A stretch of 32,483 nucleotides of DNA from Desulfobacterales bacterium. GTDB taxonomy: Bacteria > Desulfobacterota > Desulfobacteria > Desulfobacterales > UBA11574. Location of the stretch: NCBI GenBank assembly GCA_030145595.1, contig JAQYVG010000001.1:1-32483 (forward strand). The letters are read 5' to 3'. Positions 1 through 32,483 of the stretch are shown one piece after another. Position numbers and translations under genes: made by a program. The notes beneath the pieces were generated by a model, which was not told the origin of the DNA, ran no database searches, and worked only from the letters and a program-made list of their open reading frames with translations. The number at the start of each line of letters is the position of its first letter. Within the stretch, counting starts at the first letter, position 1.

Positions 1-84
1 ACAATCAACAATCAACAATCAACAATCAACAATCAACAATCAACAATCAACAATCAACAATCAACAATCAACAATCAACAATCA
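1..84. repeat. Perfect heptamer tandem repeat (ACAATCA)x12, truncated by window start
   Basis: Bases 1-84 are 12 exact copies of ACAATCA. Confidence 0.97.
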
Positions 85-260
85 TGTATCATCCATCTTT
101 ATGTCAACATTAAAATGCTGTGTTCCCAAGAACCGTACCTAAGTATCTTGAAATCTTACCATAGTGCCACATAGTATCACGAGATTCAAAAGAGCAGTAG
201 CTTTTAGTGCTGTACGGCATTCATGTCCTGAATATTTTTGAAGAATATGAACGCTTTTCA

Positions 261-308
261 GCACAACATATAGTGCTTACTCCGTATGCGATCATCTATA
301 TATTGTTA
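261..308. promoter_or_regulatory. Tandem NrdR-box-like palindromes upstream of aprBA
   Basis: GCACAACATATAGTGC (261-276) and CATCTATATATTGTTA (293-308); starts 32 bp apart; core C-W-A-Y-A-T-A-T-W-G matches NrdR consensus acaCwAtATaTwGtgt. Confidence 0.5.
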
Positions 309-366
309 GCGGCCAATATGCATTTAAACACCCTAATATTTACGAACCAGGTTCGTCCAAAAGTTC

Positions 367-395
367 TTGACAAGCATAATGTTAATTGGTATTTA
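367..395 (+). promoter_or_regulatory. Putative sigma70 promoter of aprBA
   Basis: TTGACA (367-372), 17-bp spacer ending TGG, then TATTTA (390-395); -10 is imperfect. Confidence 0.45.
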
Positions 396-661
396 AATCC
401 TTTGGCTTTTCATGGGCAAGCTATCTTCTTGATATTAAAGAATATATTTATGGAAATTTTGGTCGCGACGTTTCGTGACATAAATAAAACCGGATAGGAT
501 TTTTTTGTTTATCTGTAAAAAAAAATTAGACGGCCTAAAAGTTGCTTCTTTGGGCACATTTATGAAGGGAGGTGCAGAAAACTCGGAAGTTGTACCGTAA
601 AGTTTTTTTAGAGGTTAAAATACCGAAATCTTTTACAAAGCAAAATCAGGAGGTATACTAA

Positions 662-1099
662 ATGCCAAGTTTTGTAATTACTGAAAAATGTGACGGCTGC
701 AAAGGTGGAGACAAAACCGCCTGCATGTACATTTGCCCCAACGACCTGATGGTTCTGGAGCCCAATTCGATGTTGGCCTACAATCAGGAACCGGATCAGT
801 GCTGGGAATGTTTCTCATGCGTCAAGATCTGCCCCACCCAGGCAATTGAAGTAAGGGGTTATGCTGACTTTGTGCCGCTTGGAAGCAGCATTATGCCCAT
901 GCTGGGAACCGAGGATGTTATGTGGACCTGTAAGTTCAGAAACGGCACCATCAAGCGCTTTAAGTTCCCCATCCGGACCACCCCGGAAGGCGCCGCCAAT
1001 GCTTACGCAGATCTGAAAGGCAAGGACCTTGACAGCGAACTGCTTGCCACCGAAGAGGCCGACGGTTACGTTATGCTCACACCGATAGCAACCGTTTAA
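662..1099 (+). CDS. aprB: Dissimilatory adenylylsulfate reductase beta subunit
   Basis: MPSFVITEKCDGCKG start; two ferredoxin-type Cys motifs (CDGC..CMYICP, CWECFSCVKICP); KRFKFPIRTTPEG; SD AGGAGGT at 648-654. Confidence 0.98.
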   Translation: MPSFVITEKCDGCKGGDKTACMYICPNDLMVLEPNSMLAYNQEPDQCWECFSCVKICPTQAIEVRGYADFVPLGSSIMPMLGTEDVMWTCKFRNGTIKRFKFPIRTTPEGAANAYADLKGKDLDSELLATEEADGYVMLTPIATV

Positions 1100-1165
1100 G
1101 CAGATTAATGATTTTAAAAGATTCAGCAAACTGAACAACTACGATATTAGCTAAAGGAGGATAGC

Positions 1166-3154
1166 ATGGCATTACCGAATAAACCTTTAGGTGAACTCAA
1201 AGCCGTCAAGGACCCGGAAGTGGAAGAGCTCGAAGTTGATTATTTGATTGTCGGCGGCGGCATGGCTGCCACGGGAACGGCTTTCGAGATTAAAAAATGG
1301 GCGAAGGAAGACGCCAAGATTCTGCTGGTGGACAAAGCTTCTTTAGAGCGCAGCGGTGCTGTGGCCCAGGGACTTTCCGCCATCAATACTTACATTGGAA
1401 CCGCACAGGGCGACAATACACCGGATGACTATGTCCGCATGGTCCGCAACGACCTGATGGGCATCGTCCGTGAAGACCTTATTTTTGACTTGGGTAATCA
1501 CGTGGACGACTCGGTCTATCTGTTTGAAGAGTGGGGTCTGCCGATTTGGAAGATGTCGGATGACGGCAAGAAACTGGACGGTAAAAAGGGTATGAAGGTG
1601 GGGACATTGAAGAGCGGCGCCACCCCCGTACGTACCGGAAAATGGCAGATCATGATCAACGGCGAGTCCTATAAACGCATTGTGGCCGAAGCTGCCAAGC
1701 TGGCTCTCGGCGAAGACAATATCCTGGAGCGTGTGTTTATAGTCGAGCTGCTTCTGGACGCCAATGAAGAGAACCGCATCGCCGGTGCGGTCGGCTTTTC
1801 CGTACGTGAAAACAAAGTTTACATCATCAAATGCAACACCATGATGGTCGCCTGCGGCGGCGCCGTCAACATCTATCAGCCCCGCAGCGTCGGTGAAGGT
1901 AAAGGCCGCGCCTGGTATCCGATCTGGAATGCCGGATCCACCTATACCATGTGCATGAAAGTCGGTGCCGAGCTGACCATGATGGAAAACCGTTTCACCC
2001 CGTCACGCTATAAAGACGGTTATGGTCCGGTAGGGGCCTGGTTCTTGCTGTTCAAGGCCAAAACCCTCAACGGGCTGGGCGAAGGTTACGTGGGCAGTGA
2101 AGCGGCCCAAGCCGAACTTCAGAAATACGCACCTTACGGAACCGCCGCCATCACCCCGACCTGCCTGCGGAACCACCTGATGATTTTTGAGATGAAAGAA
2201 GGCCGCGGTCCCATTATGATGGATACGGTCAATGCGCTGAAGACCATGGGTGAAAAACTTGACAAGCGCGAGATGAAGGCCCTCGAATCCGAGGCCTGGG
2301 AAAACTTCCTCGACATGACTTGTGGTCAGGCCAACCTGTGGTGCGGTACCAACACCGAGCCCGCCGTGAAGAATTCGGAAATTATGCCCACCGAGCCCTA
2401 CCTGCTCGGATCTCACTCCGGCTGCTGCGGCCTGTGGGTATCAGGACCCGATTTTGACTGGGTACCCGAAGAATACAAAATCCGCTACAAAGAAAAAGTG
2501 TACAACCGTATGACCACGGTCAACGGACTGTTCACCTCCGGTGACGGTGTGGGCGCATCCGGTCACAAGTTCTCCTCCGGTTCCCATGCCGAAGGGCGGC
2601 AGTGCGCCAAGTCCATGGCCAGATTCGTGCGCGACAATGCCGACTTCAAACCGGCCATCAGCCAGTCCAACGAAGAACTGGTGGATCTGGTTTACAAACC
2701 GGTCAGGTTGTTCCTTGAGCATTGCGACTACACCACCGCCATCGATATCAACCCCAATTATCTCAAACCCGAGGGGATGACCTATCGGCTCATGAAAGCC
2801 GCCCACGAGTACGGCGCCGGTACGGCGACCTACTACCAGACCAGCAGCAAAAGCTTAGAGATGGTCATGGAAATGCTGCAGCTGATGCATGAAGACTGCG
2901 AAAAACTGGCGGCCGGTGATCTGCACGAACTGATGCGGGCCTGGGAAATCGAGCACCGTATCTGGACGCTCGAGTCTCATCTGCGCCACATCCAGTTCCG
3001 TAAAGAGACCCGTTATCCCGGATTCTACTATCAGTCCGACTATCCGGGAGTGGATGACGAAAACTGGTTCTGCTTTGTAAACTCCAAGTATGACCCCAAA
3101 GCAAAATCCTGGGATATCTTCAAGAAAGACTACATCCAGATTATCCCTGATTAG
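1166..3154 (+). CDS. aprA: Dissimilatory adenylylsulfate reductase alpha subunit (FAD)
   Basis: FAD motif IVGGGMAA; ERSGAVAQGLSAINTY; GKWQIMINGESYK; GHKFSSGSHAEGR; follows aprB. Confidence 0.98.
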   Translation: MALPNKPLGELKAVKDPEVEELEVDYLIVGGGMAATGTAFEIKKWAKEDAKILLVDKASLERSGAVAQGLSAINTYIGTAQGDNTPDDYVRMVRNDLMGIVREDLIFDLGNHVDDSVYLFEEWGLPIWKMSDDGKKLDGKKGMKVGTLKSGATPVRTGKWQIMINGESYKRIVAEAAKLALGEDNILERVFIVELLLDANEENRIAGAVGFSVRENKVYIIKCNTMMVACGGAVNIYQPRSVGEGKGRAWYPIWNAGSTYTMCMKVGAELTMMENRFTPSRYKDGYGPVGAWFLLFKAKTLNGLGEGYVGSEAAQAELQKYAPYGTAAITPTCLRNHLMIFEMKEGRGPIMMDTVNALKTMGEKLDKREMKALESEAWENFLDMTCGQANLWCGTNTEPAVKNSEIMPTEPYLLGSHSGCCGLWVSGPDFDWVPEEYKIRYKEKVYNRMTTVNGLFTSGDGVGASGHKFSSGSHAEGRQCAKSMARFVRDNADFKPAISQSNEELVDLVYKPVRLFLEHCDYTTAIDINPNYLKPEGMTYRLMKAAHEYGAGTATYYQTSSKSLEMVMEMLQLMHEDCEKLAAGDLHELMRAWEIEHRIWTLESHLRHIQFRKETRYPGFYYQSDYPGVDDENWFCFVNSKYDPKAKSWDIFKKDYIQIIPD

Positions 3155-3184
3155 TAATCGATCGGCTGCGATTTAGCCGGATAT

Positions 3185-3218
3185 ACCTCCAGGTGCCGCC
3201 AGGCACCTGGAGGTTTTT
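3185..3218 (+). terminator. Intrinsic terminator/stabilising hairpin after aprA
   Basis: Perfect 13-bp stem ACCTCCAGGTGCC / GGCACCTGGAGGT, GCCA loop, followed by T run. Confidence 0.85.
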
Positions 3219-3270
3219 ATTATGGAACCGCTATTAATCAATTGAAATTAACAATGCACGGAGGGATAGC

Positions 3271-4548
3271 ATGACAGAAGACAAAACAGCTCCTGCTAAT
3301 GGAAGCATTTTGGTTGTTGGAGGAGGGATCAGCGGGTTGACCACGGCCCTTGAAGCCGCCGAAGTGGGGTACGAGGTGTTTTTGGTCGAAAAAAACCCTT
3401 ACCTGGGCGGCAGAGTGGCACAGTTGAATCAATATTTTCCCAAGCTATGCCCTCCATCCTGCGGCCTGGAGATCAATTTTAGAAGAATCAAAGACAATCC
3501 TAAAATAACCGTCTTGACCCAGGGAGAAGTCGAAAAGATCGAGGGAACACCCGGCAGCTATGACGTTACTGTAGCGCTGAGCCCCAGGCTGGTTAACGCC
3601 AACTGCACGGCATGCAACGATTGCGTCGAAGCCTGCCCGGTGGAAAGAGATAATGAGTATAATTTTAACATGGACAAAACCAAAGCTATTTATCGACCTT
3701 TTGAAATGGCCTTTCCCATGCGCTATGCCATCGATGCGGCGGCCTGCAAAGGATCGGAATGCGGCGAATGCGCCAAGGTGTGCAAGTACGACGCCATCGA
3801 TCTGGATATGGCGGCCCAAACGCAGAACTTAAAGGTGGGAGCCGTTGTGTGGGCGACCGGATGGGAACCTTATGATGCCGCCAAAATAGACAACCTGGGG
3901 TTCGGCCAGTACCCGAACGTCATCACCAACATGATGATGGAGCGGCTGGCGGCGCCCAACGGACCGACCAAAGGAAAAATAACCCGACCGTCGGACGACA
4001 AGGAGCCCGCAAGTGTCGCCTTTGTTCAGTGCGCCGGGTCCCGCGACGAAAATTACCTTCCCTATTGTTCCTATATCTGCTGCATGGCCTCTCTGAAACA
4101 GGCCACCTACATCCGGGAACAGTATCCCGATGCCAAGGTGTATATTTTTTACATTGACGTCCGGGCACCGGGCCAGCGGTATGAAAAGTTCTATCAGAAG
4201 ATCAAAGAAGATGAGAATGTCATTTTGATCAAAGGCAAGGTCGCCGAAGTCAGCGAAGATACCGCCACCGGGAATATTACCGTGGTTGCCGAAAATGCCG
4301 TGACGGGCGAAAAGGTTTCGCAAGCCGTTGAAATGGCAGTTCTGGCCACCGGTATGCAGCCGACGGCTGCAAACGCCAAGCTGCCGGCCGATCTTACATA
4401 CAATGAAGACGGCTTTATCATCAATGATTTTGAAAAAGGCGGAATGTTTGCGGCTGGATGCGCCAACAAGCCCTCTGACGTGGTAACGTCGAATCAAAAT
4501 GCAACCGGTATGGCCCTTAAAGCGATTCAAACCCTGGTGAGGAAGTAG
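3271..4548 (+). CDS. qmoA: Quinone-interacting membrane-bound oxidoreductase subunit A (HdrA-like flavoprotein)
   Basis: VVGGGISG FAD motif, YFPKLCPPSCG, QCAGSRD..YCSYICC, ferredoxin Cys motifs; synteny after aprBA. Confidence 0.95.
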   Translation: MTEDKTAPANGSILVVGGGISGLTTALEAAEVGYEVFLVEKNPYLGGRVAQLNQYFPKLCPPSCGLEINFRRIKDNPKITVLTQGEVEKIEGTPGSYDVTVALSPRLVNANCTACNDCVEACPVERDNEYNFNMDKTKAIYRPFEMAFPMRYAIDAAACKGSECGECAKVCKYDAIDLDMAAQTQNLKVGAVVWATGWEPYDAAKIDNLGFGQYPNVITNMMMERLAAPNGPTKGKITRPSDDKEPASVAFVQCAGSRDENYLPYCSYICCMASLKQATYIREQYPDAKVYIFYIDVRAPGQRYEKFYQKIKEDENVILIKGKVAEVSEDTATGNITVVAENAVTGEKVSQAVEMAVLATGMQPTAANAKLPADLTYNEDGFIINDFEKGGMFAAGCANKPSDVVTSNQNATGMALKAIQTLVRK

Positions 4549-4558
4549 GAGGTTATCC

Positions 4559-6898
4559 ATGGATAAAAAATATGGTGTCTATATTTGCACAGGTTGCGGC
4601 ATCGGAGATGCCCTGGTAATGGAAGATCTGTGTGCCGTGCCTGAAGAAGAAGGTTTTTCCGTTAAAACCCATCCGTTTCTCTGCGGAGCCGAAGGCCTTG
4701 AACTCCTTAAAAAAGATATCGCCGATGACGGCGTCAACACACTGATGATTGCCGCCTGTTCCCGCCGGGTCAATTACGATGTCTTCAAGTTCGAAGGCTG
4801 CATTGTCGACCGGGTGAACCTGAGAGAACAGGTGGTCTGGTCCCATCCCAGATCTGAATTCCCGGCCCTTACGGAAGACCAGAAAGATGACGGTGAATCC
4901 TTCGATCGTCTGCAGATGCTGGCCGAAGATTACCTGAAGATGAGCATGGCCAAGCTTGAAAAGATCGATCTGCCGGAGCCGTACAAAGTGGAAACCCTGA
5001 GCAGAAAAATTATGGTTATCGGCGGCGGCATCACCGGTATTTCAGCGGCCCTGGATGCGGCCAAAGCCGGCTATGAGGTTACTATCGTTGAAAAAGAGTC
5101 GTCTTTGGGCGGCTATGCGGCCAAGATGCGCAAACAACTGCCCAACGAAGACCCCTATGAAAATCTTATTCCACCGGTTATTGAAAGCAAGATCAAAGAA
5201 CTGGAAGGCTATGACAATATCACCGTTAAAACCGAGACCATCGTAGCCCGTCTCGCCGGTGAACCGGGAGATTTCATTGTAACGCTGAAAAAGCCCGGTG
5301 AAAAAATCGAGTTTGACGTCCCCTTTCCGCTGCCCGAAGAGATGAAGTTCGATGAAAACGGCAAAGAGCTCGATGTTGAAGATCAGCATAAACGCTATCT
5401 GGAATACAATGAAGGCAAACTTGACATTTTGCAGTTCGATCCTGACGGTGAAAAGTTCGGAGCCGTAGTCCTGGCGGCCGGCTGGCGCCCGGATCAACCT
5501 GAGGGCGATGAATTTGCCCATTTGGGTTTCGGGGAACTGCCCGATGTCATCACCAACTGCCAGTTCGAAGAAATTGCCGCCAAGGGCAAAGTAACCAGAC
5601 CGTCGGACGGCAAAGAAGCCAAATCCGTGGCCTTTATCCAGAGTCCCGGCAAGGGGGATGACGATGCTGATTTTAAGTATTGTGGATCGGTGACCAGCCT
5701 GGTGGCCCTCAAGCAGGCCAAATATGTACGCGAAGACTACGACGACAGCAAGGCCTATATCTTTTACCAGCACATGCGTACCCCCGGCCTGACGGAAAAC
5801 TTTTACAAGAGCATCCAGCAGGACGAGGGCATCTTTCTGACCAAAGGCGACGTCATCAGCGTCTCTACAAATGGAGACGGCATGATTTTGGAAGCGGACA
5901 ATACCCTTTTGGGAGAAAAAGTCAAGGTCATCGCCGATCTGGTTGTACTGGCCACCGGTATGGTCCCGGTAACCGTTGATGACCCTGTGGTCAACATGGC
6001 GTATCGCCAGGGACCTTCGTTTCGGGAGATCGGTCTTTTCGACGGCTTTTGCGATTCAAACTATATCTGCTTCCCGTATGAAACCCAGCGAACCGGTATT
6101 TATGCGGCCGGAGGCATCCGGCGCAGCATGACCATGGAAGAGTCCATGGAAGACGCCACCGGTGCCGCCCTTAAAGCGATTCAGTGCATTGAATCGGTCA
6201 ACCGCGGCGTGTCCGTGCACCCCCGGTCCGGTGATATGACCTTCCCGGACTTCTTTTTCCAACGATGCACCCAGTGCAAGCGCTGTACCGAAGAGTGCCC
6301 TTTTGGCGCTTTAGATGATGATGAAAAGGGAACTCCCAAACCGAACCCGTCGCGCTGCCGGCGCTGCGGCACCTGCATGGGCGCTTGCCCCGAACGTATC
6401 ATCGGTTTTGCCGACTTCAACATCGACAGTGTCGGCTCCATGGTCAAGGCCATCGGTGTGCCCTCTGAAGATGATTATTACGAGCCTCCCTTTAGGATCG
6501 TGGGATTTGTGTGCGAAAACGACGCCATGCCGGCCCTTGATATCGCCGGTTTGAACAGGCTTGTCTATTCAGCCGACGTGCGCTTAATCCCGATTCGGTG
6601 TCTGGGCTCCATGAACGTTATCTGGATCAAAGACGCCCTGGCCCAGGGCCTGGACGGAGCTTTCCTGCTGGGCTGCAATCACGGCGACGATTATCAATGT
6701 CATTTTATCAAGGGCAGCGAACTTTCGGAAATCAGAGTCCAAAAGATTGGTGAGGCCTTGTCGAGCCTGGCCCTGGAAGAAGAACGGGTCGCCCAGTTCC
6801 AGGTCGCCATCGACGAATACGATAAAATTCCCAAGATGATTAATGACTTTGTGGAACAGGTAGAAGCCCTCGGCCCCAACCCGTTCAAGGGATTCTAG
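4559..6898 (+). CDS. qmoB: Qmo subunit B (HdrA-like plus C-terminal MvhD-like domain)
   Basis: VYICTGCG start, IGGGITG FAD motif, CTQCKRCTEECP/CRRCGTCMGACP, C-terminal FVCENDA..IRCLGS..GCNHGDDYQCHF MvhD-like region. Confidence 0.95.
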   Translation: MDKKYGVYICTGCGIGDALVMEDLCAVPEEEGFSVKTHPFLCGAEGLELLKKDIADDGVNTLMIAACSRRVNYDVFKFEGCIVDRVNLREQVVWSHPRSEFPALTEDQKDDGESFDRLQMLAEDYLKMSMAKLEKIDLPEPYKVETLSRKIMVIGGGITGISAALDAAKAGYEVTIVEKESSLGGYAAKMRKQLPNEDPYENLIPPVIESKIKELEGYDNITVKTETIVARLAGEPGDFIVTLKKPGEKIEFDVPFPLPEEMKFDENGKELDVEDQHKRYLEYNEGKLDILQFDPDGEKFGAVVLAAGWRPDQPEGDEFAHLGFGELPDVITNCQFEEIAAKGKVTRPSDGKEAKSVAFIQSPGKGDDDADFKYCGSVTSLVALKQAKYVREDYDDSKAYIFYQHMRTPGLTENFYKSIQQDEGIFLTKGDVISVSTNGDGMILEADNTLLGEKVKVIADLVVLATGMVPVTVDDPVVNMAYRQGPSFREIGLFDGFCDSNYICFPYETQRTGIYAAGGIRRSMTMEESMEDATGAALKAIQCIESVNRGVSVHPRSGDMTFPDFFFQRCTQCKRCTEECPFGALDDDEKGTPKPNPSRCRRCGTCMGACPERIIGFADFNIDSVGSMVKAIGVPSEDDYYEPPFRIVGFVCENDAMPALDIAGLNRLVYSADVRLIPIRCLGSMNVIWIKDALAQGLDGAFLLGCNHGDDYQCHFIKGSELSEIRVQKIGEALSSLALEEERVAQFQVAIDEYDKIPKMINDFVEQVEALGPNPFKGF

Positions 6899-7004
6899 TG
6901 ATTGATGATTTTCGATTGACGATTGTAGATTGGATAGTTGCGCCATCCGACAGGATGAAGCAACTTAATTAAGGCTTCAATCGTCAATATTCAATATTCA
7001 ATAG
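6899..7004. repeat. Inverted heptamer-array cassette between qmoB stop and qmoC SD
   Basis: Left arm TGATTGA TGATTTT CGATTGA CGATTGT AGATTGG (6899-6933); inner hairpin AGTTGC..CATCC-GACA-GGATG..GCAACT (6936-6965); right arm TCAATCG TCAATAT TCAATAT TCAATAG (6977-7004). Confidence 0.8.
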
Positions 7005-7018
7005 TAGGAGGTATTCTT

Positions 7019-8158: not shown

Positions 8159-8194
8159 CCACAAGCAAGCTACTAGTACCAAATTCGACCAACC

Positions 8195-8229
8195 AAGGGG
8201 ATACAGAAATGTATCCCCTTTCTTTATTT
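8195..8229 (+). terminator. Intrinsic terminator of qmoABC
   Basis: AAGGGGATACA-GAAA-TGTATCCCCTT stem-loop followed by TCTTTATTT. Confidence 0.85.
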
Positions 8230-8491
8230 CTGCCCTATTGAGTTAACTCCTCATCTTGATATTAAGCATAACAAAAATGGACAGGACATCATTTTGGAAA
8301 CAGGTCTTTATCTTATCTCAACTTAATGAAAACAGATAGTTGCAAGATGTCTGTATCGGCAGAAGTCAAAAAAAGTCCTATCTATTCTATCTACTTCTTC
8401 CACAAAACAACGCAATGACGTAATTTGATCTGGTATTTTATTCTACAAAATTTACCCTTGACTTTAGAGATATTTATTGTATTAATTTAAG

Positions 8492-14600: not shown

Positions 14601-14634
14601 TTAGTGTCCATCCATAAATACTTTTGAGCACTAA
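14601..14634. repeat. Dispersed repeat TTAGTGTCCATCCATAAAT (likely MITE end remnant)
   Basis: 19-mer identical at 14601-14619 and 22731-22749; 14/15 match at 15103-15117; this copy is closed by CACTAA (inverted TTAGTG) at 14629-14634. Confidence 0.7.
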
Positions 14635-15371: not shown

Positions 15372-15572
15372 ATGGCTAATGGAATTGTAAAATGGTTTAA
15401 TAGCAGCAAAGGTTATGGCTTCATTGAGCAGGAAGATGGCCCGGATGTATTTGTTCATCATTCAGGCATCAATGCTACCGGTTTCAAGACTCTCTATGAA
15501 GGCGACCGGGTTACTTTTGACATTGAGCAGGGGCAAAAAGGTCCTGCTGCAGTAAATGTCACTGTAGTTTAG
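15372..15572 (+). CDS. csp: Cold-shock protein (CspA family)
   Basis: GIVKWFN, RNP1 KGYGFI, RNP2 [20 protein letters not shown]; SD AAGGAG. Confidence 0.97.
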
Positions 15573-15631: not shown

Positions 15632-15661
15632 GTGGTTTTTATTCTTTTTGCAACCAAAATT

Positions 15662-15706
15662 GCTGGTCTCGCAAAAAGGTAGGAAAACGACCTTTTTACG
15701 AGAGTA
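15662..15706. repeat. Miniature inverted repeat related to the ends of the 26031-26182 element
   Basis: TCTCGCAAAAAGGT (15667-15680) / ACCTTTTTACGAGA (15690-15703), 13/14 complementary; GCTGGTCTCGCAAAAAG resembles GATGGCGTCGTAAAAAG. Confidence 0.6.
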
Positions 15707-15798
15707 TTTTGTATTTGGTTTTTAGTGTTTGGTGATTTAACATAATGGCATATAAGCATATATTTCAAGGAAAACACAAAATACTAAACACCAAACAC
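15704..15798. repeat. Inverted heptamer-array cassette
   Basis: Left GTATTTT GTATTTG GTTTTTA GTGTTTG GTGATTT (15704-15738); right AAAACAC AAAATAC TAAACAC CAAACAC (15771-15798). Confidence 0.75.
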
Positions 15799-15847
15799 CT
15801 GATGAATTTTGTTTTTTAGAATTTCATCACAACTTGCCGGTAGCGGC

Positions 15848-19999: not shown

Positions 20000-20143
20000 G
20001 GAAAAAAAATTATATCCGCATTCGTGTGTGTCGTCTAACGGATTCATCTTGTATAATTATTTTCAGAGTGGTAAGCGGTGACTGCTATAATTTATGAGAC
20101 CTTTGAAAAAGTCAAGGTGTTTGAGCAAAGGCAAGCAGGAGCA

Positions 20144-21589: not shown

Positions 21590-21720
21590 TTGCTACGAAG
21601 ACACCAAGGCAGTCACTGGTGAACCGTTATCAGTGAAAAGTGATCAGTAAGAGCAAACTGATTACTGACATTTGTGCCTTCCCGCCTGCCAAAGTAAGTA
21701 CGACGGACAGGTGTGGCAAA
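21590..21720. repeat. Composite nested repeat element
   Basis: Outer TTGCTACGAAGACACCAAGGCA / TTTGTGCCTTC...GTGTGGCAA; inner heptamer array CAGTCAC TGGTGAA CCGTTAT CAGTGAA AAGTGAT CAGTAAG (21610-21651) with inverted CAAACTG ATTACTG; GC-rich insert 21682-21710. Confidence 0.55.
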
Positions 21721-22682: not shown

Positions 22683-22803
22683 ATGTCCGTTGACAGTTGC
22701 CCGTTGCCCGTGGGAAAAAATAAGAGGTGGTTAGTGTCCATCCATAAATTTGGAATATTCAATAACTGCCGACCACTGACAACGGACCACTAACAACGGA
22801 CAT
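22683..22803. repeat. Inverted heptamer-array cassette between divergent genes
   Basis: Left GTCCGTT GACAGTT GCCCGTT GCCCGTG; right CACTGAC AACGGAC CACTAAC AACGGAC; perfect 10-bp termini ATGTCCGTTG / CAACGGACAT; encloses TTAGTGTCCATCCATAAAT. Confidence 0.8.
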
Positions 22804-23648: not shown

Positions 23649-23874
23649 TAGCCACAGACGCACACAGACGAGTCTTCGCTGCGCTACGCCCCCGCAAGCA
23701 GGCGCAGACTTTTGCCCTGCGGACATTCGCAGGGCAAAATCACGTATCGCTTCGCCAAAGAAGTGTAATTGGATAGCCCTTATATTTACCCGAAGGGCAT
23801 GACATCTAATAGTTTGCACTGCCTGTGGCAGTGCAAACTATTAGTCTGTGTAAGTCTGTGTGTGTCTGTGGCTA
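23649..23874. mobile_element. MITE-like element with 21-bp terminal inverted repeats and two perfect internal hairpins
   Basis: TAGCCACAGACGCACACAGAC / GTCTGTGTGTGTCTGTGGCTA (20/21); 12-bp hairpin 23710-23739; 18-bp hairpin 23806-23844; sits between convergent trmL and fhs. Confidence 0.7.
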
Positions 23875-23900: not shown

Positions 23901-23933
23901 AAAAAAATAGGGCCCGAAAAATTCGGGCCCTAT
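23901..23933 (-). terminator. Intrinsic terminator of fhs
   Basis: 12-bp perfect stem ATAGGGCCCGAA / TTCGGGCCCTAT, with T run on the minus strand. Confidence 0.88.
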
Positions 23934-23965
23934 GGGGTAAATCAGATGAATCGATTGTTACGTTA

Positions 23966-25729
23966 TTAGAACAATCCTGTCACCTTTCCGGTTTCAACGT
24001 CCACATCCACCCTGCGGTAAGCAGGATCGGAACTGGTTCCCGGCATCAGGCTGATAGCGCCGCAAACCGGACAAAGGAACTTGGCGCCGGAGAAGATCAG
24101 CACGTCCTGGACCGGCAGGGTCCATCCCTTGGGCACACCCTTGACCGCCGGGTCATGGGTCAGCGAGAGGTGGGTCTTGACCATCATGGTGGTGTATTCA
24201 TCGTACTGGGGATCGTTTTCAAGCATCTTGGCCTTGGCTTCGGCCGCGGGCGTCCAGGCCACACCGTCGGCGCCGTAAACGTTCTTGGCGATCAGGTCAA
24301 CCCGGTCACGCAGCTTGGTTTCCAGAGGATACAGGAATTTGAAATCACCCGGATCGTCACAGGCTTCGATGACCGCATCGGCAAATTCCAGGGCGCCGTC
24401 ACCGCCGTCGGCCCAGTGGGTGGACTCTGCACAGCGGGCCCCGGCTGCCTCGGCTGCCTTGCGCACCATGGCTACCTCAGCATCGGTATCGTTGTGGAAG
24501 CGGTTGATGCAGACCACCGGGTTGACGCCGGCCAGGCGGATGGTTTTGATGTGGTGTACCATATTATCCACACCCGTTTCCAGGAATTCCAGCCCTTCTC
24601 TCGTATACTCAGGAGGCAGCGCCAGGCCGGCTACGACCTTGGGACCACCACCGTGCATCTTCAGGGCTCGGATGGTGCTGGTAAGAACGGAGACGTGGGG
24701 TTTCAGTCCGCTGTAACGGCATTTGACGTTCCAGAACTTCTCAAAGCCGATGTCGGCACCGAAACCGGACTCGGTCACATTGTAGTCAAAAATCTTCAGG
24801 CCGACCCGGTCGCCGATAATTGAAGATTGACCCACGGCGATGTTGGCAAACGGTCCGGCATGCACCATACAGGGCTGATATTCAGCGGTGCACATCAGAG
24901 TCGGATTAATGGTGTTTTTCATCCAGGCGGTCATGGCATTGCCGACTTCCAAATCGCCGGTGGTTATCGGTTTGCCGGTTTTGTCAAAGGCCACGGTGAT
25001 GTTGTTTAGTTTTTCACGCAGATCGGCGAGATCATAAACAATGGAAAGAATTGCCATCAGCTCGGAGCTTACCGCGATCCCGAACTTGGACTGCATGACC
25101 ATGCCGTCAAACCTGCCGCCCATACCTATAACGATATTTCGCAAAGCCTGAGCACAAAAATCCATGATCCAGCCCATCTCTACTCGTGTGGGATCGACGT
25201 CCAGCCTGGGCATACGCGTCAGACGCGCAAGCTGTTCATCGTTGTAGTTGCGCTCATGCTGCATTCTGGCGGTGAGTGCCACCATGGCCAGGTTGTGAGC
25301 GTTCATGATGTCGTTGATGTCGCCGGTGAGACCCATGGAGAATTCGGTCATGGGAATCAGCAGAGAGTTGCCGCCGCCGGCCGCGGTTCCCTTGATGTTC
25401 ATGGTCGGTCCACCCGAGGGCTGCCGCAGAACGCCACCAACATTTACTCCGCGTTTGCCCATACCTTCCATAAGACCGCAGGAAGTGGTGCTTTTGCCTT
25501 CACCCAAAGGCGTGGGCGTGATGGCGGTCACTTCAATGTACTTGCCATCCGGCTTGTCCTTGAGCCGCTCGATAATCTTCATGAAATCCAGTCTGCACAG
25601 TCTCCCCTGGGGGATAATTTCATCTGGTTCAAGACCCAGTTTTTCCCGCCATTCTTCAGGAGTAGGCATGTTTTCTTCGGCCGCTTCTGAAATCTGCCAG
25701 TCGGCCATTTCTACCGCATTGTAAGCCAT
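23966..25729 (-). CDS. fhs: Formate--tetrahydrofolate ligase
   Basis: [64 protein letters not shown]; SD GAGGAGG. Confidence 0.97.
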
Positions 25730-26030
25730 CTACTCAACCTCCTCTATTTAAAGTTAAAAGATACGGGAACCCAATGCTAAATCACCCGCATGGTTCCCTG
25801 CACTTTATTCATTTTATAGGGTTATGAACCCTATATCTTCCATCAGATGGTTCCCATGTAAATAAAAAACCCTGATAGACCAGTTGTTTTTTTAGGTTAA
25901 AACAACAAGCACTTATACTTAAAAAGAACTTAAAAAGCACTGGCGGTATGTTACCATCAACTAAAAATTGCCTTAAAGCACATGCAATCTTATTTGGCAA
26001 GTAATATGTTAATGTTTTGGATAAAAAAAT

Positions 26031-26182
26031 GATGGCGTCGTAAAAAGTCCCCTCTACTGCGTTGTAGTATTTTTTCAGACACTTGACATACTACATGTAT
26101 AGCCTCGTTCCTGAAAAAATACTACGCCTTTTTATCCCGCCGTGGTTTGGCGGGGGTATATGAATCTTTTTACGAAATCATC
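26031..26182. mobile_element. MITE-like element (152 bp) with TIRs and internal inverted repeat
   Basis: GATGGCGTCGTAAAAAG / CTTTTTACGAAATCATC (14/17); perfect 15-bp inner IR GTAGTATTTTTTCAG (26064-26078) / CTGAAAAAATACTAC (26111-26125); nested CCCGCC-GTGGTTT-GGCGGG hairpin (26136-26154). Confidence 0.75.
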
Positions 26183-26250
26183 AAGATTAATCACCGTGCG
26201 ATTTTTTCCTATACCATGAGACCTTTGAAAAATGTTGCCCGCATTCATCA

Positions 26251-28272
26251 CTATAAGTTCGGGCTGTGCAGTTGATAAAGCCTGAAATAAAACCCCTGGC
26301 GCTGCATCAGTTCGTCGTGAGTCCCGGTTTCGATAATCCGGCCTCTGTTGAGCACCATAATACGGTCGGCTCCCCGGGCGGTTGAAAGACGATGGGCAAC
26401 GATGATGGATGTGCGGTTGGCCATCAGGTTAGAAAGAGCTTTCTGGATTTTAAGTTCTGTGGACGAATCGATATATGAGGTGGCTTCGTCCAGTATAATA
26501 AGATCGGGGTTGCGGGCCAAGGCCCGCGCAATCGATATGAGCTGGCGTTCTCCGCTTGAAATTGACATTCCGCCTTCGGCAAGAACGGTATCAAGACCGC
26601 GGGGCAATCTGTCGATGAGGGTATTGCAGTTTGAGTCCTTGATCAGCTGCTGCATATTTTTTCCCAAAATGCCGTCTTTGCCCAGGGTAATATTGTCACG
26701 TACAGTTTCGGAAAACAGAAAAGGATCCTGCATAACCAGGGCCATTTTCTCCCTTAATTGAAAAGTGTGTATCTTTTTGATATCTATGCCGTTTACAAGC
26801 ACCTGGCCTGATGTGGGATCATAAAACCGGGTAATGAGGTTGATAATCGATGTTTTCCCCGAGCCGGTCGGTCCCACCAAAGCAACAGTTTCGCCGGCTG
26901 AAACTTTAAAAGAGACCCGTTTAAGTACGGTTTCACCTTTTATATATGCAAGGGAAACATCTTTTAAAGCAATTTGGGTAATGTTATCCAGCGCACTTGT
27001 AAAAGTTTGGGTTTTAAGGCCGGATGTTGATCCGCGCTCGACTGTCGATACAGGCTGCGGAAGCCTTTCAGTACTGTCCAAAATTAAAAAAATTCTTTCA
27101 GCCGATGCCATGGCATTTTGCATGATATTATATTTTTCGGCGAGGTCTCGAATGGGCCTGAAAAACATTCTCATATAGGAAATAAAGGCAACCAGCGCTC
27201 CGAGGCTGATACTGCCGGTCATCACTTTGCCGCCGCCGTAATAGATTACGATCGCTATGGTTACCGCGCCCAGAAGTTCTATAACCGGCATAAAGACAGC
27301 AAAAACATGGACCTGTCGCATACCGGCCAGATAATGTTCATGATTCAGTTTGGAAAAATCCCGGTAATTCTCCTTTTCCTGCAAAAAGAGCTGGATAACC
27401 TTTAGGCCGCCGATGGTTTCCGAAAACTTGGTATTAATCTCGGCAATCTTGATCCTGAGAACTCTGAAAGCTTCCCGGGCCTGGCCGGCAAAATGGATGG
27501 ACGCCAGCAGCACAACCGGGAGCACCATAAAAGAAATAAGTGTCAGTTGCCAGTTGATGCCTAAAAGAACAGCGGTGATTCCTAAAAGCAAAAAAAGATC
27601 CTTGAAAATAAATACAATCACGGATGTGAACAGTTCGTGCATGTTTTGAATATCATTGGTGACCCGGGTGACGAGACGGCCCACGGGATTACGGGTAAAA
27701 AATGCCACCGACAGGCTCTGGATATGCTCAAACAGGCGAACCCTCAGATTATGCATGATCATCTGCCCCACATATTCCATCACCATAACCTGCACAAAGT
27801 TGAGAACAAACGTCACCAGCACAATCACGAGAAAATAAGCGGCAATCATGCTGACCCCGGCCAGGTCGCTACGGCGCAGCACAGCCAGTTCTTTTTTTTC
27901 CAATTGCTCAAGATCGTCTAATTTAACGAGGGCAAATGATTCGTATCTTTTGAAGATGTCTGCATTTTTTTGGACAATAGCCTCAACTTTGGCATCCGCC
28001 AGATCAGCCCGCAGGTATCTGACGTTACTATCAGCCACATCCCGACCAAGACCTTGCACGGATTCTGCCTGCGGCACGATATAGCGGTCGATTGCAATCT
28101 TGGTGAGATACGGCAGAGAAAGGTCCAGCAGGGTGATAACAACCATGAGAACAATTGATAAGCCCAGGAGCAGTTTGTAAGGCCTCGCATACGGATACAG
28201 GCGCTTTAACAATTTTACATCATAAGGCTTGCCAAGCTGCTTTTCCTCAAAATATCCAAAATCAGTGCGCAT
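26251..28272 (-). CDS. ABC exporter, fused TMD-NBD (MdlB/YheH-like subunit)
   Basis: 6-TM domain, Walker A GPTGSGKT, variant signature ISSGERQL, Walker B IILDEAT, AHRLS. Confidence 0.93.
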   Translation of the reverse strand: MRTDFGYFEEKQLGKPYDVKLLKRLYPYARPYKLLLGLSIVLMVVITLLDLSLPYLTKIAIDRYIVPQAESVQGLGRDVADSNVRYLRADLADAKVEAIVQKNADIFKRYESFALVKLDDLEQLEKKELAVLRRSDLAGVSMIAAYFLVIVLVTFVLNFVQVMVMEYVGQMIMHNLRVRLFEHIQSLSVAFFTRNPVGRLVTRVTNDIQNMHELFTSVIVFIFKDLFLLLGITAVLLGINWQLTLISFMVLPVVLLASIHFAGQAREAFRVLRIKIAEINTKFSETIGGLKVIQLFLQEKENYRDFSKLNHEHYLAGMRQVHVFAVFMPVIELLGAVTIAIVIYYGGGKVMTGSISLGALVAFISYMRMFFRPIRDLAEKYNIMQNAMASAERIFLILDSTERLPQPVSTVERGSTSGLKTQTFTSALDNITQIALKDVSLAYIKGETVLKRVSFKVSAGETVALVGPTGSGKTSIINLITRFYDPTSGQVLVNGIDIKKIHTFQLREKMALVMQDPFLFSETVRDNITLGKDGILGKNMQQLIKDSNCNTLIDRLPRGLDTVLAEGGMSISSGERQLISIARALARNPDLIILDEATSYIDSSTELKIQKALSNLMANRTSIIVAHRLSTARGADRIMVLNRGRIIETGTHDELMQRQGFYFRLYQLHSPNL

Positions 28273-30022
28273 TAATAAATTCCTCCTCTATTTCCTGGAG
28301 GCGAAATATTTTGGCATAGTACTGATTGTTTGCCATCAATTGAGTATGCGTTCCGGATTCCACAATACGCCCCCTGTCAAGGGCGATGATATGATCGGCA
28401 AAACGGACTGCAGAAATTCGATGGGAGGCAATAATAATGGTTCTGTTGTCGGCCATGGATCTGACGGTCGTGATAATGTCACGGCCGGTTTCCATATCCA
28501 CCTGGCTGATGGGGTCGTCCAGGATCACAATGCCGGCCTCATTCAGCAGGGCACGGGCCAGGGCAACACGCTGTTTCTGTCCACCGGAAAGAATGACTCC
28601 CTTTTCGCCGACAATGGTATCAAAGCCTTCGGGAAATGATTGGATGGTATCATAAAGGACTGCTCTTTGGGTCGACTGTATTAATTCCACCTCTTTTGCA
28701 TCAGCACCGAAGGTAATGTTTTCCCGGATGGTGCCGGCAAATAAAAAAGGCTCCTGTGACATGAAAGCGATCAGGGATCTGAGATCGGCCAGCTGTATTT
28801 TTCGAATGTCGATGCCGTCTATCAGAATGCGCCCCTGTGAGACATCATAAATCCTCGGTATGAGACTCAAAAGGGTTGTTTTACCGCTTCCGGGAGGACC
28901 AACGACACCTAAAATCTTGCCATGGTCGAGGTTAATATCGATTGCAGTTAAAACCTGGGTAGTGTCAGAAACGGCAGCTTCGAGCCCATATGAGAAGGCG
29001 ACATTTTCAAAAACAAGTCCGCCGCGGGTCTTTTTGATGGGCTTTGCGTCCGGCATATCGTCAATTTCAGGTTCTGTTTTTATAATCTTATCGATCCTGT
29101 CAAGAGAAGCTTTACCCCGCTGGATAAGGTTCGTGACCCAGCCGATGGCCATCATGGGCCAGGTTAGAAGACCCAGATAAGCGATAAACGCCACAAAATC
29201 TCCGGGGGTGATGGTAAAATCGATGGTTTGACGTCCCCCCAGAAAAAGAATGATGACCAGGCTTAAGTTTGAAAGCAACACCATCAGGGGGAAAAAAGAG
29301 CCGGTAACCCTGACCAGCTTCAGATTTTTATCGATATAATCCCTTGATTTGGTTTCAAGTCTTGCAGCAGAATCTTTTTCCCGGCAATATGCCTTTATGA
29401 CGCGGATACCTGCAAACCGCTCTCTGGTAACCTCGGTTAAATCTGAAAATGCCTTTTGTACCTCCCCATACATGCGGTGCATCTTTTTACTGAAAAACCG
29501 TGCGCTCACAACGATCAAAGGCATGGGTATGAGAACAAAAACCGTCAGCCTGATATTGATATAGGCCATAAAACCGATTGCTGCCGTCCCTAACACAATA
29601 GCGTCGGTTAGCGCCACCATACCCATACCGGTAGCCATACGAACATGTTGAATATCATTGGTGGCATGCGCCATCAGGTCGCCGGTTTTGGTTTTATCGA
29701 AATATGGGGCCGAAAGGGTTTGAATATGCGCAAAAAGTCTGTTGCGCAGGCCCTCTTCGACCCGGCGCGATGTGCCCATGAGGCAACGTCGCCATACGTA
29801 TCGGAAAAGACCTATCAGGACGGCAATCCCTACGATATAAAGGGCATAGGCTAACAGTTTCATCAGGTCGGTTTGCAGGGCGGCAAGATCGTCAATAGCC
29901 CATTTGATGACGCGGGGGATGAAAAGCTGCAGGAAATCGACGGTGATCAGACAGATGATTCCCAGGACAATCCGTAATCGGTTTTCCTGAAGATACGGTT
30001 TTATTAAATAAAAGGATTTCAT
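28262..30022 (-). CDS. ABC exporter, fused TMD-NBD (MdlA/YheI-like subunit)
   Basis: Walker A GPPGSGKT, LSGGQKQR, degenerate Walker B VILDDP, SHR; overlaps partner gene by 11 bp, consistent with a heterodimer. Confidence 0.93.
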   Translation of the reverse strand: MKSFYLIKPYLQENRLRIVLGIICLITVDFLQLFIPRVIKWAIDDLAALQTDLMKLLAYALYIVGIAVLIGLFRYVWRRCLMGTSRRVEEGLRNRLFAHIQTLSAPYFDKTKTGDLMAHATNDIQHVRMATGMGMVALTDAIVLGTAAIGFMAYINIRLTVFVLIPMPLIVVSARFFSKKMHRMYGEVQKAFSDLTEVTRERFAGIRVIKAYCREKDSAARLETKSRDYIDKNLKLVRVTGSFFPLMVLLSNLSLVIILFLGGRQTIDFTITPGDFVAFIAYLGLLTWPMMAIGWVTNLIQRGKASLDRIDKIIKTEPEIDDMPDAKPIKKTRGGLVFENVAFSYGLEAAVSDTTQVLTAIDINLDHGKILGVVGPPGSGKTTLLSLIPRIYDVSQGRILIDGIDIRKIQLADLRSLIAFMSQEPFLFAGTIRENITFGADAKEVELIQSTQRAVLYDTIQSFPEGFDTIVGEKGVILSGGQKQRVALARALLNEAGIVILDDPISQVDMETGRDIITTVRSMADNRTIIIASHRISAVRFADHIIALDRGRIVESGTHTQLMANNQYYAKIFRLQEIEEEFINAH

Positions 30023-30067
30023 AAAGTTATATAATTATCGCAATTGAAAGCAACTTTTTCCCGTACA

Positions 30068-30096
30068 TTGACTTTCACAATGGCGGTTGTTATGAT
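30068..30096 (+). promoter_or_regulatory. Putative sigma70 promoter of RNB gene
   Basis: TTGACT (30068-30073), 17-bp spacer ending TGT, TATGAT (30091-30096). Confidence 0.65.
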
Positions 30097-30104
30097 GTCG
30101 GGTT

Positions 30105-32090
30105 ATGGAACCAGGAAATATTGTTGAATACATAGACCGCCAGAAAATAATATGCGCGGTTGTCCTGGAAGTCAAGAAACAGAGACTCAGGCTGCTTGCC
30201 GAAACCAATCGGGAAGTCAACCTTTCGCAAAGCCGCCTGTCTCACAAATGTAATCTGCGTATTGAGCTTTCCATGGGCAGAACCCGGATTGTCGATAGGT
30301 TAAATGAAATCGCAAACCGGCGTAAAGCTTTAAGTGCCGATGTTGATGTCAAAGAGTTGTGGGAAGTTCTGAATACGGAGCAGGAATGGATCGACCTTGA
30401 AACCATGACCGCATTCTGTTTCCCGAACAGTCCGACTTATGACCACGAATCCGCTGTAATAAGAGCATTTTTTGAAAACAGACTCTTTTTTAAGTTTAAC
30501 CAGAATAGCTTTTTCCCGATTTCAGAAGAACTGCTCCAGCGCAAAGTTGCCCAGCAGAAAGAAGCCGCCCGCAGAAGCCGGCTCATCGCCGAGGGAAGCG
30601 ATTGGTTAACAAACATACTGGTAGGCAATCAGGTAGACTTGCTCCAGGATAAGTCTGAAATTATAACCATACTGAAATCATATTATATTTTTGAAAAGGA
30701 AAGCGAGCATTATAACATTGGCAAAGCCATTCTGGCCGGGGCCGGAATCGATGCTGCCGAAGGCTTGTTTCAGATCCTGGTAAAACTGGGAGTCTTTGAC
30801 AAAAATGAAAACATCGATCTATATCGATACAATATGCCCACTGTTTTTTCCGACGAGGTTACAGAGAGCACGACCAAACTGATCAACTTGAAGTCGCCGG
30901 CGTTTGCCGGCAACAGTCGTAAAGACCTGACCATGCTGCCCATCATGACCATAGACGGCCAGGGAACCCTTGATTATGATGATGCTATCAGTATCGAAGA
31001 TAAAGGTGATCATTACAGACTAGGTATTCATATTGTTGATGTGGGGCATTATATCAAAAAAGGGGATCTGATTGATCGGGAGGCTTTTGCGCGCGGAAGT
31101 TCCATTTATATGCCGGATCAGAAAATACCCATGCTGCCCTCCGGCCTGGCTGAAGATCTTTGCAGTCTGAGAGCCGGGGAATTGCGTCCTGCCGTCAGTA
31201 TCATGGTAAATTTAAGGCGGTATTTCGAAATCATCGATTATGAAATTTTCGCGAGCATTATCAGGGTAAAGGACCAGTGTACCTATTACGATGTCAATCT
31301 GATGGCATCCGATAATAACAAAATCATTATCTTGCGCGATATTGCCGAATCGTTCCGCCAAAAAAGGTTTGAAGGTGGTGCCGTTCAAATAAACCTGCCG
31401 GAGATCCATGTCTGGATCAATGAAGACGGTGAAGCCACTATAAGCCGCATTAACAGGGAAAGCCCCGGAAGAATGCTGGTTGCGGAAATAATGATCATGG
31501 CCAACTGGTTGATGGCCAAATTCCTTAAAGCAAATGATGTGCCGGCCGTTTACCGGTCTCAAAAGGCTCCCAGGGAACGCCTCTATAAGGGCAATGAGGG
31601 CACTATTTTTGAAAACTATATGCAGCGCAGGTTTCTAAGCCGTTTTGTGCTGAACCACCGGCCCGAACATCATTCCGGATTGGGGCTGAATGCCTATGTC
31701 ACGGCTACTTCTCCCATCCGGAAATATTTTGATCTTGCCACCCAGCGGCAGATAAGGGCGATTCTCGGTCTGGAAGAGCCTTATACCAAAGAAGAGATTG
31801 ATCATATCATCCAAATGCTGGGCCAACCGATGGGCGATGTGTCAAGGATTCAATACAGCCGCAACAGATACTGGTTGTTGAAGTACCTTGAAAAAAGAAT
31901 CGGCCAAAAAGAAGAGGCCATTGTCTTGTTTAAACGTAGAAGCAACTACAGGATACTGCTGACGGAATATGTTCTGGAATGTGATCTGGCGCAGTCGAGC
32001 GGCATAAGTTTAAAACCCGAAGACCTGATTCAGGTTACCCTGCAGCATGCCGACGCGCGCAAAGATGTGGTTTCGGTATTTATGGGCTAA
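30105..32090 (+). CDS. RNB-domain exoribonuclease (RNase II/R family)
   Basis: Catalytic TIDGQGTLDYDDAIS, GIHIVDV, RGSSIYMPD..IPMLP, VAEIMIMAN, HSGLGLNAYVTATSPIRKYFDL. Confidence 0.92.
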   Translation: MEPGNIVEYIDRQKIICAVVLEVKKQRLRLLAETNREVNLSQSRLSHKCNLRIELSMGRTRIVDRLNEIANRRKALSADVDVKELWEVLNTEQEWIDLETMTAFCFPNSPTYDHESAVIRAFFENRLFFKFNQNSFFPISEELLQRKVAQQKEAARRSRLIAEGSDWLTNILVGNQVDLLQDKSEIITILKSYYIFEKESEHYNIGKAILAGAGIDAAEGLFQILVKLGVFDKNENIDLYRYNMPTVFSDEVTESTTKLINLKSPAFAGNSRKDLTMLPIMTIDGQGTLDYDDAISIEDKGDHYRLGIHIVDVGHYIKKGDLIDREAFARGSSIYMPDQKIPMLPSGLAEDLCSLRAGELRPAVSIMVNLRRYFEIIDYEIFASIIRVKDQCTYYDVNLMASDNNKIIILRDIAESFRQKRFEGGAVQINLPEIHVWINEDGEATISRINRESPGRMLVAEIMIMANWLMAKFLKANDVPAVYRSQKAPRERLYKGNEGTIFENYMQRRFLSRFVLNHRPEHHSGLGLNAYVTATSPIRKYFDLATQRQIRAILGLEEPYTKEEIDHIIQMLGQPMGDVSRIQYSRNRYWLLKYLEKRIGQKEEAIVLFKRRSNYRILLTEYVLECDLAQSSGISLKPEDLIQVTLQHADARKDVVSVFMG

Positions 32091-32133
32091 ATTTCTCCTT
32101 AATTCAAATTCTCTTCCAATAGATATAATTAAA

Positions 32134-32483
32134 TTTGGATCATCTCCAAAAGAGTTGGAGTAATCCTAAGGATTCAAGGGTCCAAGGATCCAAGGGTTCG
32201 AGTGAAATACTTTAAAATATCTATGCCTTAAAAGTTTTGCCGAAGTTGTATAGGCTATGTTTGCATCTATATAAAAAAACGAATTACAAATGTATCCTCT
32301 GAAGAAGAAAGGTTCAATTTAAAATTACAGAAAAGAAGGGCTGTCGCGGACATTTTATCAAGTATAGCAAAAGTTGAAAGGATGCTCAAAACGATGATAA
32401 AATCGATTGAAAGCAAACACTTGAACCCTTGACCCCTTGAATCCTTGGACCCTCTTCTCCAACTAAATTGGAGAAGAACCAAA
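32134..32483. mobile_element. Inverted-repeat-bounded element with octamer arrays enclosing a decayed four-helix-bundle gene (may continue past window end)
   Basis: Outer IR TTTGGATCATCTCCAAAAGAGTTGGAG (32134-32160) vs CTCCAACTAAATTGGAGAAGAACCAAA (32457-32483); left octamers AAGGATTC AAGGGTCC AAGGATCC AAGGGTTC; right CACTTGAA CCCTTGAC CCCTTGAA TCCTTGGA. Confidence 0.7.
32207..32432 (+). pseudogene. Four-helix-bundle protein (23S rRNA IVP / bAvd-like family) pseudogene
   Basis: One frame reads IL*NIYALKVLPKLYRLCLHLYK; after a frameshift in the A7 run it reads RITNVSSEEERFNLKLQKRRAVADILSSIAKVERMLKTMIKSIESKHLNP*. This resembles the family pattern (L.VWQK...L...IY..T..FP.EE.Y.L..Q.RR...SI.SNIAEG) with the middle deleted. 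Confidence 0.7.

Follow-up and report, generated by a model that had tools for sequence, protein, structure and literature searches.

Introduction

The intervening sequence (IVS) in the 23S rRNA of Coxiella burnetii contains an open reading frame (ORF) for an S23p/PF05635 protein with heptameric repeats upstream of it, and is excised by RNase III (PMC4990558). Heptamers have also been described between genes. Rehm and colleagues reported intergenic heptamers in Xanthomonas and Nostoc, which often form convergent pairs near gene ends, lie mostly between co-directional genes and are conserved between species (Rehm et al. 2015, PMC4692102), and MacGregor described oriented direct heptamer repeats before start codons in the Beggiatoaceae, which are unpaired and were read as regulator sites (MacGregor 2015, PMC4679880). 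Genes for PF05635 proteins are also located inside cas operons (PMC3936711), and the proteins resemble Avd (PMC10053308); all five papers are cited here for the passages that deal with these repeats or proteins. In the current study, we describe a stretch of 32,483 nt from the genome of a Desulfobacterales bacterium (the whole stretch is hereafter called the window), in which six intergenic elements consist of two short tandem arrays in inverted orientation, referred to as arms. We propose, with a probability of about 65%, that these elements descend from small selfish cassettes, each with a four-helix-bundle or a GxxExxY nuclease-fold gene between the inverted arrays, and that they have lost the gene by internal deletion. 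The results join three separate puzzles, namely the excess of intergenic heptamers (PMC4692102, PMC4679880), the function of the 23S IVS protein (PMC4990558) and the presence of stray members in operons such as cas (PMC3936711).

As in the 23S IVS, a protein of the same family is found in the loop of a long stem, together with heptameric repeats and a decaying ORF (PMC4990558), and the cassettes described here have the terminal complementary stem, optionally with a PF05635 ORF, by which an IVS is recognised. They differ from it in lying between protein-coding genes, in having many unit types and a second cargo family, and in numbering more than 150 copies; no window element lies within an rRNA gene, all of them being between protein-coding genes (the 23S gene of this genome is not assembled). 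The heptamer of Xanthomonas and Nostoc is a single G-rich unit read as a G-quadruplex, and no cargo gene is named for it in the passages cited (PMC4692102), whereas at least ten unit types, most of them not rich in G-runs, occur here and are tied to cargo clades. The passages on the Beggiatoaceae contain no link to four-helix-bundle proteins (PMC4679880), and the single arms found here, unlike those unpaired repeats, come from paired cassettes. No publication connecting arms and cargo was found in the open-access literature, a search that did not cover supplements, which may bear on this link. Among known systems, the REP/REPIN-RAYT repeats (REP, repetitive extragenic palindrome) are intergenic hairpins near stop codons, whose gene-less copies outnumber the gene-bearing ones and whose repeat type is tied to the protein. 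The present elements differ in that their arms are tandem arrays and their cargo is not a Y1/HUH enzyme.

Results

Paired inverted arrays in the window

The six paired elements were found where the preliminary description of the window had placed them, the arm pairs being located by scan or read from the sequence (Table 1). Their positions were right, and three of them proved larger than described (15661-15829, 32137-32480, and 21610-21669, which is nested in 21590-21720). The arms are complementary over 75% at 6901-6928/6975-7002, 81% at 22683-22713/22773-22803, 95% at 23649-23669/23854-23874 and 84% at 32168-32198/32416-32446. Folding, expressed as z against shuffles, ranges from -3.0 to -13.2 on both strands for five of the elements, and is -6.0 on the plus strand and -1.9 on the minus strand for 21610-21669. 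The units at 21610, 22683, 23649 and 32168, i.e. those of four of the six pairs, flank intact genes elsewhere. The claim that one member encloses the remnant of a four-helix-bundle gene was borne out by BLASTX, which matched 32207-32432 to three segments of an intact member of the family, residues 1-25, 17-53 and 86-119 (E between 2e-4 and 2e-3; intact proteins of loci L281-L284), and identifies the remnant as a homologue of TIGR02436/PF05635 members; taken alone, the remnant gave no hidden Markov model (HMM) match and no alignment to the source genome's own protein on contig C357.

The tract at 1-84 had been counted with the same pattern. It stands at a contig break as an unpaired right-hand arm, and its unit belongs to the family of 6975-7002. 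Synteny places contig C431 before it, and C431 terminates in an array of a different unit; therefore no partner is shown for 1-84, and we rejected it as a paired cassette. Contigs from public runs break at this tract too, and its perfect 12-copy state may be an assembly effect.

Table 1. Repeat elements of the window, with the parts of the element at its right end. G000 labels the source genome and other G numbers its relatives; L numbers are extracted loci and C numbers contigs.
Feature	Coordinates	Strand	Remarks
Window	1-32483		Contig C111 of genome G000; assembly 92% complete, 700 contigs
Single arm	1-84		12 perfect 7-mer copies; contig start, upstream of aprB promoter region
Gene-less 7-mer hairpin	6899-7004		From qmoB stop codon to qmoC ribosome-binding site; without transposon shell
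Dispersed element	15661-15829		7-mer hairpin 15704-15799 (arm pair 15711-15798) between two short palindromes
Outer 8-mer cassette	21590-21720		Unit type found around intact GxxExxY gene in L475; right arm broken by short insert
Inner 7-mer hairpin	21610-21669		Nested in loop of 8-mer cassette; unit type flanks intact four-helix-bundle gene on C19
Gene-less 7-mer hairpin	22683-22803		Ends 5 nt before start codon; unit found around intact four-helix-bundle genes L366, L370
Gene-less 10-mer cassette	23649-23874		Internal perfect hairpins; between trmL and fhs; arms as around intact GxxExxY genes L461, L466
Bare element resembling a miniature inverted-repeat transposable element (MITE)	26030-26183		DUF772/DDE transposon ends, no tandem arms
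Non-autonomous ISL3 derivative, 344 bp	32137-32480	+	Palindromic ISL3-type ends around 8-mer cassette
Left 8-mer arm	32168-32198	+	Inside 32137-32480
Four-helix-bundle gene remnant	32207-32432	+	Frameshifted, internally deleted; about residues 1-53 and 102-119
Right 8-mer arm	32416-32453	+	Overlaps stop codon of remnant

Cargo genes between inverted arms

The association of the arrays with small cargo genes was examined in the source genome, in its family and in the phylum. Four of the five TIGR02436 genes of the source genome lie within inverted arms, the fifth being cut by a contig end, as do all three of its complete GxxExxY genes. In the family, where the best 110 of 228 TIGR02436 matches by score were taken and 100 genes had full flanks, inverted arms were found around 84 of the 100, compared with 15 of 400 swapped combinations; for GxxExxY (30 loci and two of the source genome's own) the figure was 19 of 27. 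The phylum sample, 30 loci of 215 matches, gave 23 of 26 against 20 of 400 swapped. The array unit follows the protein clade: of the 95 protein pairs with at least 70% identity, 70 have units that differ by no more than one mismatch, compared with 17 of the 2606 pairs below that level. The flanks of close relatives are unrelated in 50 of the 78 fully resolved cargo pairs, and the intact cargo has the same orientation as both neighbours at 30 of 36 resolved loci and the opposite orientation to both at none. The four-helix-bundle protein matches PF05635 and PDB entry 2GSC (E 1e-16). The GxxExxY proteins match PF13366 (E 3e-41) and retain a D...ExK motif in 27 of 30; no solved structure was found for them by sequence, and no phage record resembled the GxxExxY cassette used as query.

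Genome-wide distribution

We scanned the whole genome and two shuffled genomes for neighbouring arrays of equal period, in inverted or direct orientation. Inverted pairing proved to be a property of the whole genome, with 169 inverted pairs of equal arm period and none in either shuffled genome; the period is 7 in 102 pairs, 8 in 45, 9 in 13 and 10 in 9. Direct pairs numbered 135, against 5 and 0. The inverted pairs reduce to 154 non-redundant ones, a number that is an undercount because the scan recovers only three of the six window pairs, and one of the 154 lies inside a called ORF. Where both neighbours are resolved, 82 of 105 pairs sit between co-directional genes, compared with 1008 of 1524 intergenic gaps in general, and the other 23 sit between divergent or convergent genes. 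Arm polarity is fixed, in that the reverse complement was found in a left arm for only 66 of 1474 left-arm 9-mers. Solo arrays (n=211) retain the outward polarity, with a gene end within 40 nt on the outer side in 99 and on the inner side in 17; this fits deletion remnants, and some of them may be undetected pairs. Strong arrays occupy 324 of 1573 intergenic gaps of at least 60 nt in this lineage.

The same sites in relatives

Presence and absence of the elements between relatives was found both at window sites and elsewhere, and intact, deleted, single-arm, empty and different-unit states agree with the view that the window members are empty or decayed forms of a cassette family with small cargo genes. 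Three checks could have refuted the preliminary description, on inverted pairing genome-wide, on association with particular cargo and on differences between relatives, and none of them did so. At the queA-tgt junction, read by eye, relatives have an intact cassette, decayed full-length copies, the last codons followed by the right arm, empty spacers of 5 nt, or one of several other units. Among same-genus genomes, the argJ-rluB junction, also read by eye, is empty in one, where stop and start codons overlap, has a right arm only in a second and holds another cassette in a third. Single arms arise here through deletion of paired cassettes. At the trmL-fhs site, occupied by 23649-23874 in the window, G002 and G009 share the window's unit, G001 and G003 have different ones and G004 has no element; after cspA (15661-15829), G004 is again empty, and G002 carries the same shell with a different unit. 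G001 has the 8-mer cassette alone, without the nested 21610-21669. Unit copy number varies between relatives, and no clean empty allele was found for the gatA-like site on C72.

Far from decaying fast, the hairpin at qmoB-qmoC is old: 25 of 27 family relatives have kept it, and so have three genomes from other families, with a loop that varies freely; the spacer in G004 is 18 nt.

Transposon shells

The element 32137-32480 ends in a short palindrome on both sides and has many copies in the source genome, six of which are identical over 75-77 nt at the right end. Relatives contain five autonomous ISL3 elements with the same ends (two of them in the same genus), 1344-1351 bp long, and one ISL3 element end is identical to 32455-32480 in 26 of 26 nt. 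ISL3 elements produce target duplications of 8 bp. Among 18 ISL3-ended copies with both ends, the duplication matches at 7 or more of 8 positions in nine and is perfect in five. Sister copies range from nearly full-length genes down to bare arms, and intact four-helix-bundle genes of the same clade have ISL3 ends too. In none of 28 relatives was the element seen behind the RNase II gene, and a cognate ISL3 transposase was found in two of four same-genus genomes. The element 32137-32480 resembles ISL3-derived MITEs, or mobile insertion cassettes: it is dispersed in many near-identical copies, shares the cognate ends, lacks a transposase, has sisters with 8-bp duplications, and its orthologous site is empty. 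It differs in that its passenger is a decayed repeat-armed cassette, and the description applies to this one of the six paired elements. Transposition in trans is very probable for the ISL3 shell.

The ends of 15661-15829, which are degenerate in the window, and those of 26030-26183 match 1.9-kb DUF772/DDE_Tnp_1_6 transposons of relatives (L389, L390), which we take to be of the IS1182 type. DUF772/DDE ends are thus found on one other of the six paired elements, for which transposition in trans is also probable, and most cassettes are without matched ends. The preliminary description had found no transposase in the window; we agree, there being none among the 14 proteins scanned, the other long ORFs being judged by eye. 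For two of the six members this implies no new mechanism, because they have known DDE transposon ends. The ends of the other four paired elements were unmatched in 20 ISL3, 30 PF05598 and 30 PF01609 loci, other insertion sequence (IS) families not being searched. Genome-wide, ISL3 or DUF772/DDE ends lie within 80 nt of 28 of the 154 pairs, compared with 69 of 1217 control segments, and a further 45 pairs have other conserved shells without a matched transposase.

Discussion

The proposal that the window elements descend from small selfish cassettes rests on several results: the architecture and the cargo, the series of deletion states, the agreement of array unit with protein clade, cargo genes under purifying selection, the occurrence of close relatives at unrelated sites, and the ISL3 ends with their duplications. 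Such a cassette would land between a stop and a start codon, oriented like the operon, and its gene would be expressed from the host transcript. Internal deletions take out the gene, so that a hairpin or a single arm is left, as in the series seen at the junctions above; junctions are also invaded anew, and cassettes are found nested. Lineages that gain IS ends would multiply as MITEs, as suggested by the ends and duplications. It is likely that some cassettes are copied by ordinary transposases, and the movement of the rest may explain the unexplained 7-base repeats of bacteria. On balance, we favour selection as the reason why cassettes survive mainly in the direction of the host operon. In cassettes without a shell, the arms are predicted to be recognition sites for the cassette's own cargo protein. 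We tentatively suggest that such cassettes move as DNA and that the GxxExxY nuclease is a candidate for the catalyst; protein recognition and a DNA reaction are favoured because two unrelated conserved cargos share the same packaging, the nuclease motif is intact and an RNA signature is lacking. A bolder and more doubtful extension is that four-helix-bundle and GxxExxY cassettes form their own class of transposase-free mobile element, in which each protein would recognise its clade's unit and target operon stop/start junctions; their remnants would then be the main source of unexplained 7- to 10-base intergenic repeats, and rRNA intervening sequences would be copies that landed in 23S genes.

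A number of observations weigh against this proposal. No intact gene with the unit of 6899 or 15704 was found among the cargo loci retrieved, and only 14 of the 154 cassettes contain an intact gene (5) or a detectable remnant (9). Shared descent of the whole cassette alone accounts for the link between unit and clade, and the median ratio of nonsynonymous to synonymous substitution (dN/dS) of 0.10 over 106 pairs, which indicates purifying selection on the cargo, is biased low because the pairs were selected at 80% or higher protein identity. The four-helix-bundle fold has, to our knowledge, no known catalytic activity. As regards the shells, 81 of the 154 pairs are without a recognised one, three further shells gave no transposase match in 60 loci, and neither the ISL3 nor the DUF772/DDE cognate transposase is present in the 92%-complete assembly. 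At its target duplication 32137-32480 itself matches in only 6 of 8 positions, with AT-rich flanks, and a target duplication could be recognised neither for the DUF772/DDE shell (flanks read by eye) nor for shell-less cassettes. Furthermore, the retention of the qmoB-qmoC hairpin in so many relatives is not predicted by pure decay; slow decay, template switching and domestication all fit.

The preliminary description read the arrays as RNA stems of a mobile or RNA-processing system, by analogy with rRNA intervening sequences. In the case of processing, the arms would pair in the operon mRNA and RNase III would cut the stem, so that the cargo is removed or separated as in the 23S IVS. The Coxiella IVS indeed combines the same protein family, heptameric repeats and RNase III cutting (PMC4990558), an RNase III is encoded in the genome, and the cargo is co-oriented with its neighbours. 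In addition, pairing in the qmoB-qmoC stem reaches 84.6% over 22 genomes, and in 17 of 25 comparisons an arm pairs slightly better with its own partner than with a swapped one (p 0.007 by permutation; related genomes are not independent). We nevertheless consider this reading unlikely, as the stems have no strand-specific G-U excess. An RNA stem under selection is expected to favour G-U over A-C on the transcribed strand; the ratios are 86:93 and 15:19 for intact cassettes, 72:62 for the 82 pairs between co-directional genes, 28:21 for the phylum set and 7:5 for qmoB-qmoC, and the pooled 173:174 of the intact sets and co-directional pairs compares with 22:10 in terminators (Fisher p 0.04; small control). 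Column covariation at the qmoB-qmoC stem is not above shuffles, more than a fifth of the resolved cassettes (23/105) sit between divergent or convergent genes, and the window has no Rfam match. Splicing at 6899-7004 was rejected, since the RNA contig without the hairpin has six other letters at that place (a comparison of contigs only) and is read as an empty allele. A different RNA route, in which the Avd-related four-helix-bundle protein would bind its own hairpin RNA and recruit a host reverse transcriptase, the cDNA being inserted at gene junctions, agrees with the homology of PF05635 to Avd (PMC10053308), the match to 2GSC, the co-orientation of the cargo and three reverse-transcriptase matches in the genome. 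Orientation, however, needs no RNA route, because copies carried by ISL3 likewise point in the direction of the downstream gene (15:2; 7:7 for left ends), so selection can create it; orientation tallies other than those of ISL3 ends are unreliable where the left-arm pattern also matches right arms. No reverse transcriptase was found in 18 of 52 family genomes, one of them 97% complete with nine four-helix-bundle matches; its presence or absence gives no support to this route and is weak evidence in incomplete genomes. As this route leaves the GxxExxY cassettes uncovered and the G-U bias is absent, we regard it as unlikely.

The cassettes could also be without mobility of their own, spreading via horizontal transfer, illegitimate recombination and hitch-hiking on IS, with arms that are slippage arrays whose complementarity is maintained by template switching, or which persist as mRNA insulators. 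Some conserved outer shell is found in 73 of 154 cassettes against 134 of 1217 controls, a partly circular comparison, and the enrichment of real-transposon ends, the want of a common target duplication and the variable unit copy number are in line with such passive spread. It appears the least likely of the alternatives, since close relatives of shell-less cargo genes occur at unrelated sites even within one genome, the same junction holds different units in same-genus genomes, and two unrelated proteins sharing one packaging and staying under purifying selection are left unexplained. The present analysis adds to what has been described DUF772/DDE as a second carrier transposon, a G-U test with a negative outcome, the replacement of units at single junctions and the long persistence of a hairpin within qmoABC. 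The arrays occupy a junction in the core of sulfate reduction, qmoB-qmoC, and, together with identical ends, they break assemblies.

Setting and further observations

Among the genes of the window are aprBA, qmoC and two of HdrA-like type, whose position suggests qmoA and qmoB; the host is therefore a sulfate reducer. The public sequencing runs that best match the window are from marine sediment. The window stops at a scaffold gap after 32483, and beyond the gap the final 77 nt of the ISL3-type element are found a second time (G000:C111:32484-32569), because identical element copies confuse assembly. A gene for a 66-aa cold-shock protein (PF00313), below the cut-off of the ORF list, lies at 15372-15572 and is followed by a terminator-like hairpin.

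Several minor features accompany the arrays. Short palindromic inserts interrupt arms at 21681-21711 and 23670-23703, and inserts like these are found again in arms elsewhere in the genome and in relatives. At G000:C448:384-985, arrays with units of the 6899 family are stacked and nested over about 600 nt in front of a start codon and run off the contig end. A 7-nt motif, presumably a very stable DNA mini-hairpin, has a density per 10 kb of 5.4 in cassettes, 3.2 in other intergenic sequence and 0.8 in coding sequence (13, 116 and 231 hits), which is a weak hint only. Other MITE-like elements lie at the qmoB-qmoC junction of relatives, beside the hairpin or replacing it (L032, L034, L036), and stand-alone 31-bp palindromes of ISL3 ends with perfect 8-bp flanking duplications, i.e. 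minimal MITEs, occur in the metagenome loci L180, L206, L217 and L228.

The possibility that a RAYT moves the cassettes was rejected, as no Y1/HUH gene is flanked by cassette repeats (tandem scan, three of four Y1 loci). Three of the four Y1 genes of the source genome have their own non-periodic inverted ends. Stretches of 1.0-1.1 kb near Y1 matches, bounded by near-perfect inverted repeats of 24-31 nt, were located at L540:1404-2437, L541:831-1920 and L542:767-1858, and in L541 the Y1 match may fall just outside the pair; terminal inverted repeats are not expected for IS200/IS605. The ends of other dispersed repeats lie at 14602, 20096, 20895, 22732 (in the loop of 22683-22803) and 26218, and the type at 20096 and 26218 resembles the ends beside PF05598 transposases in L249, L251, L253 and L278.

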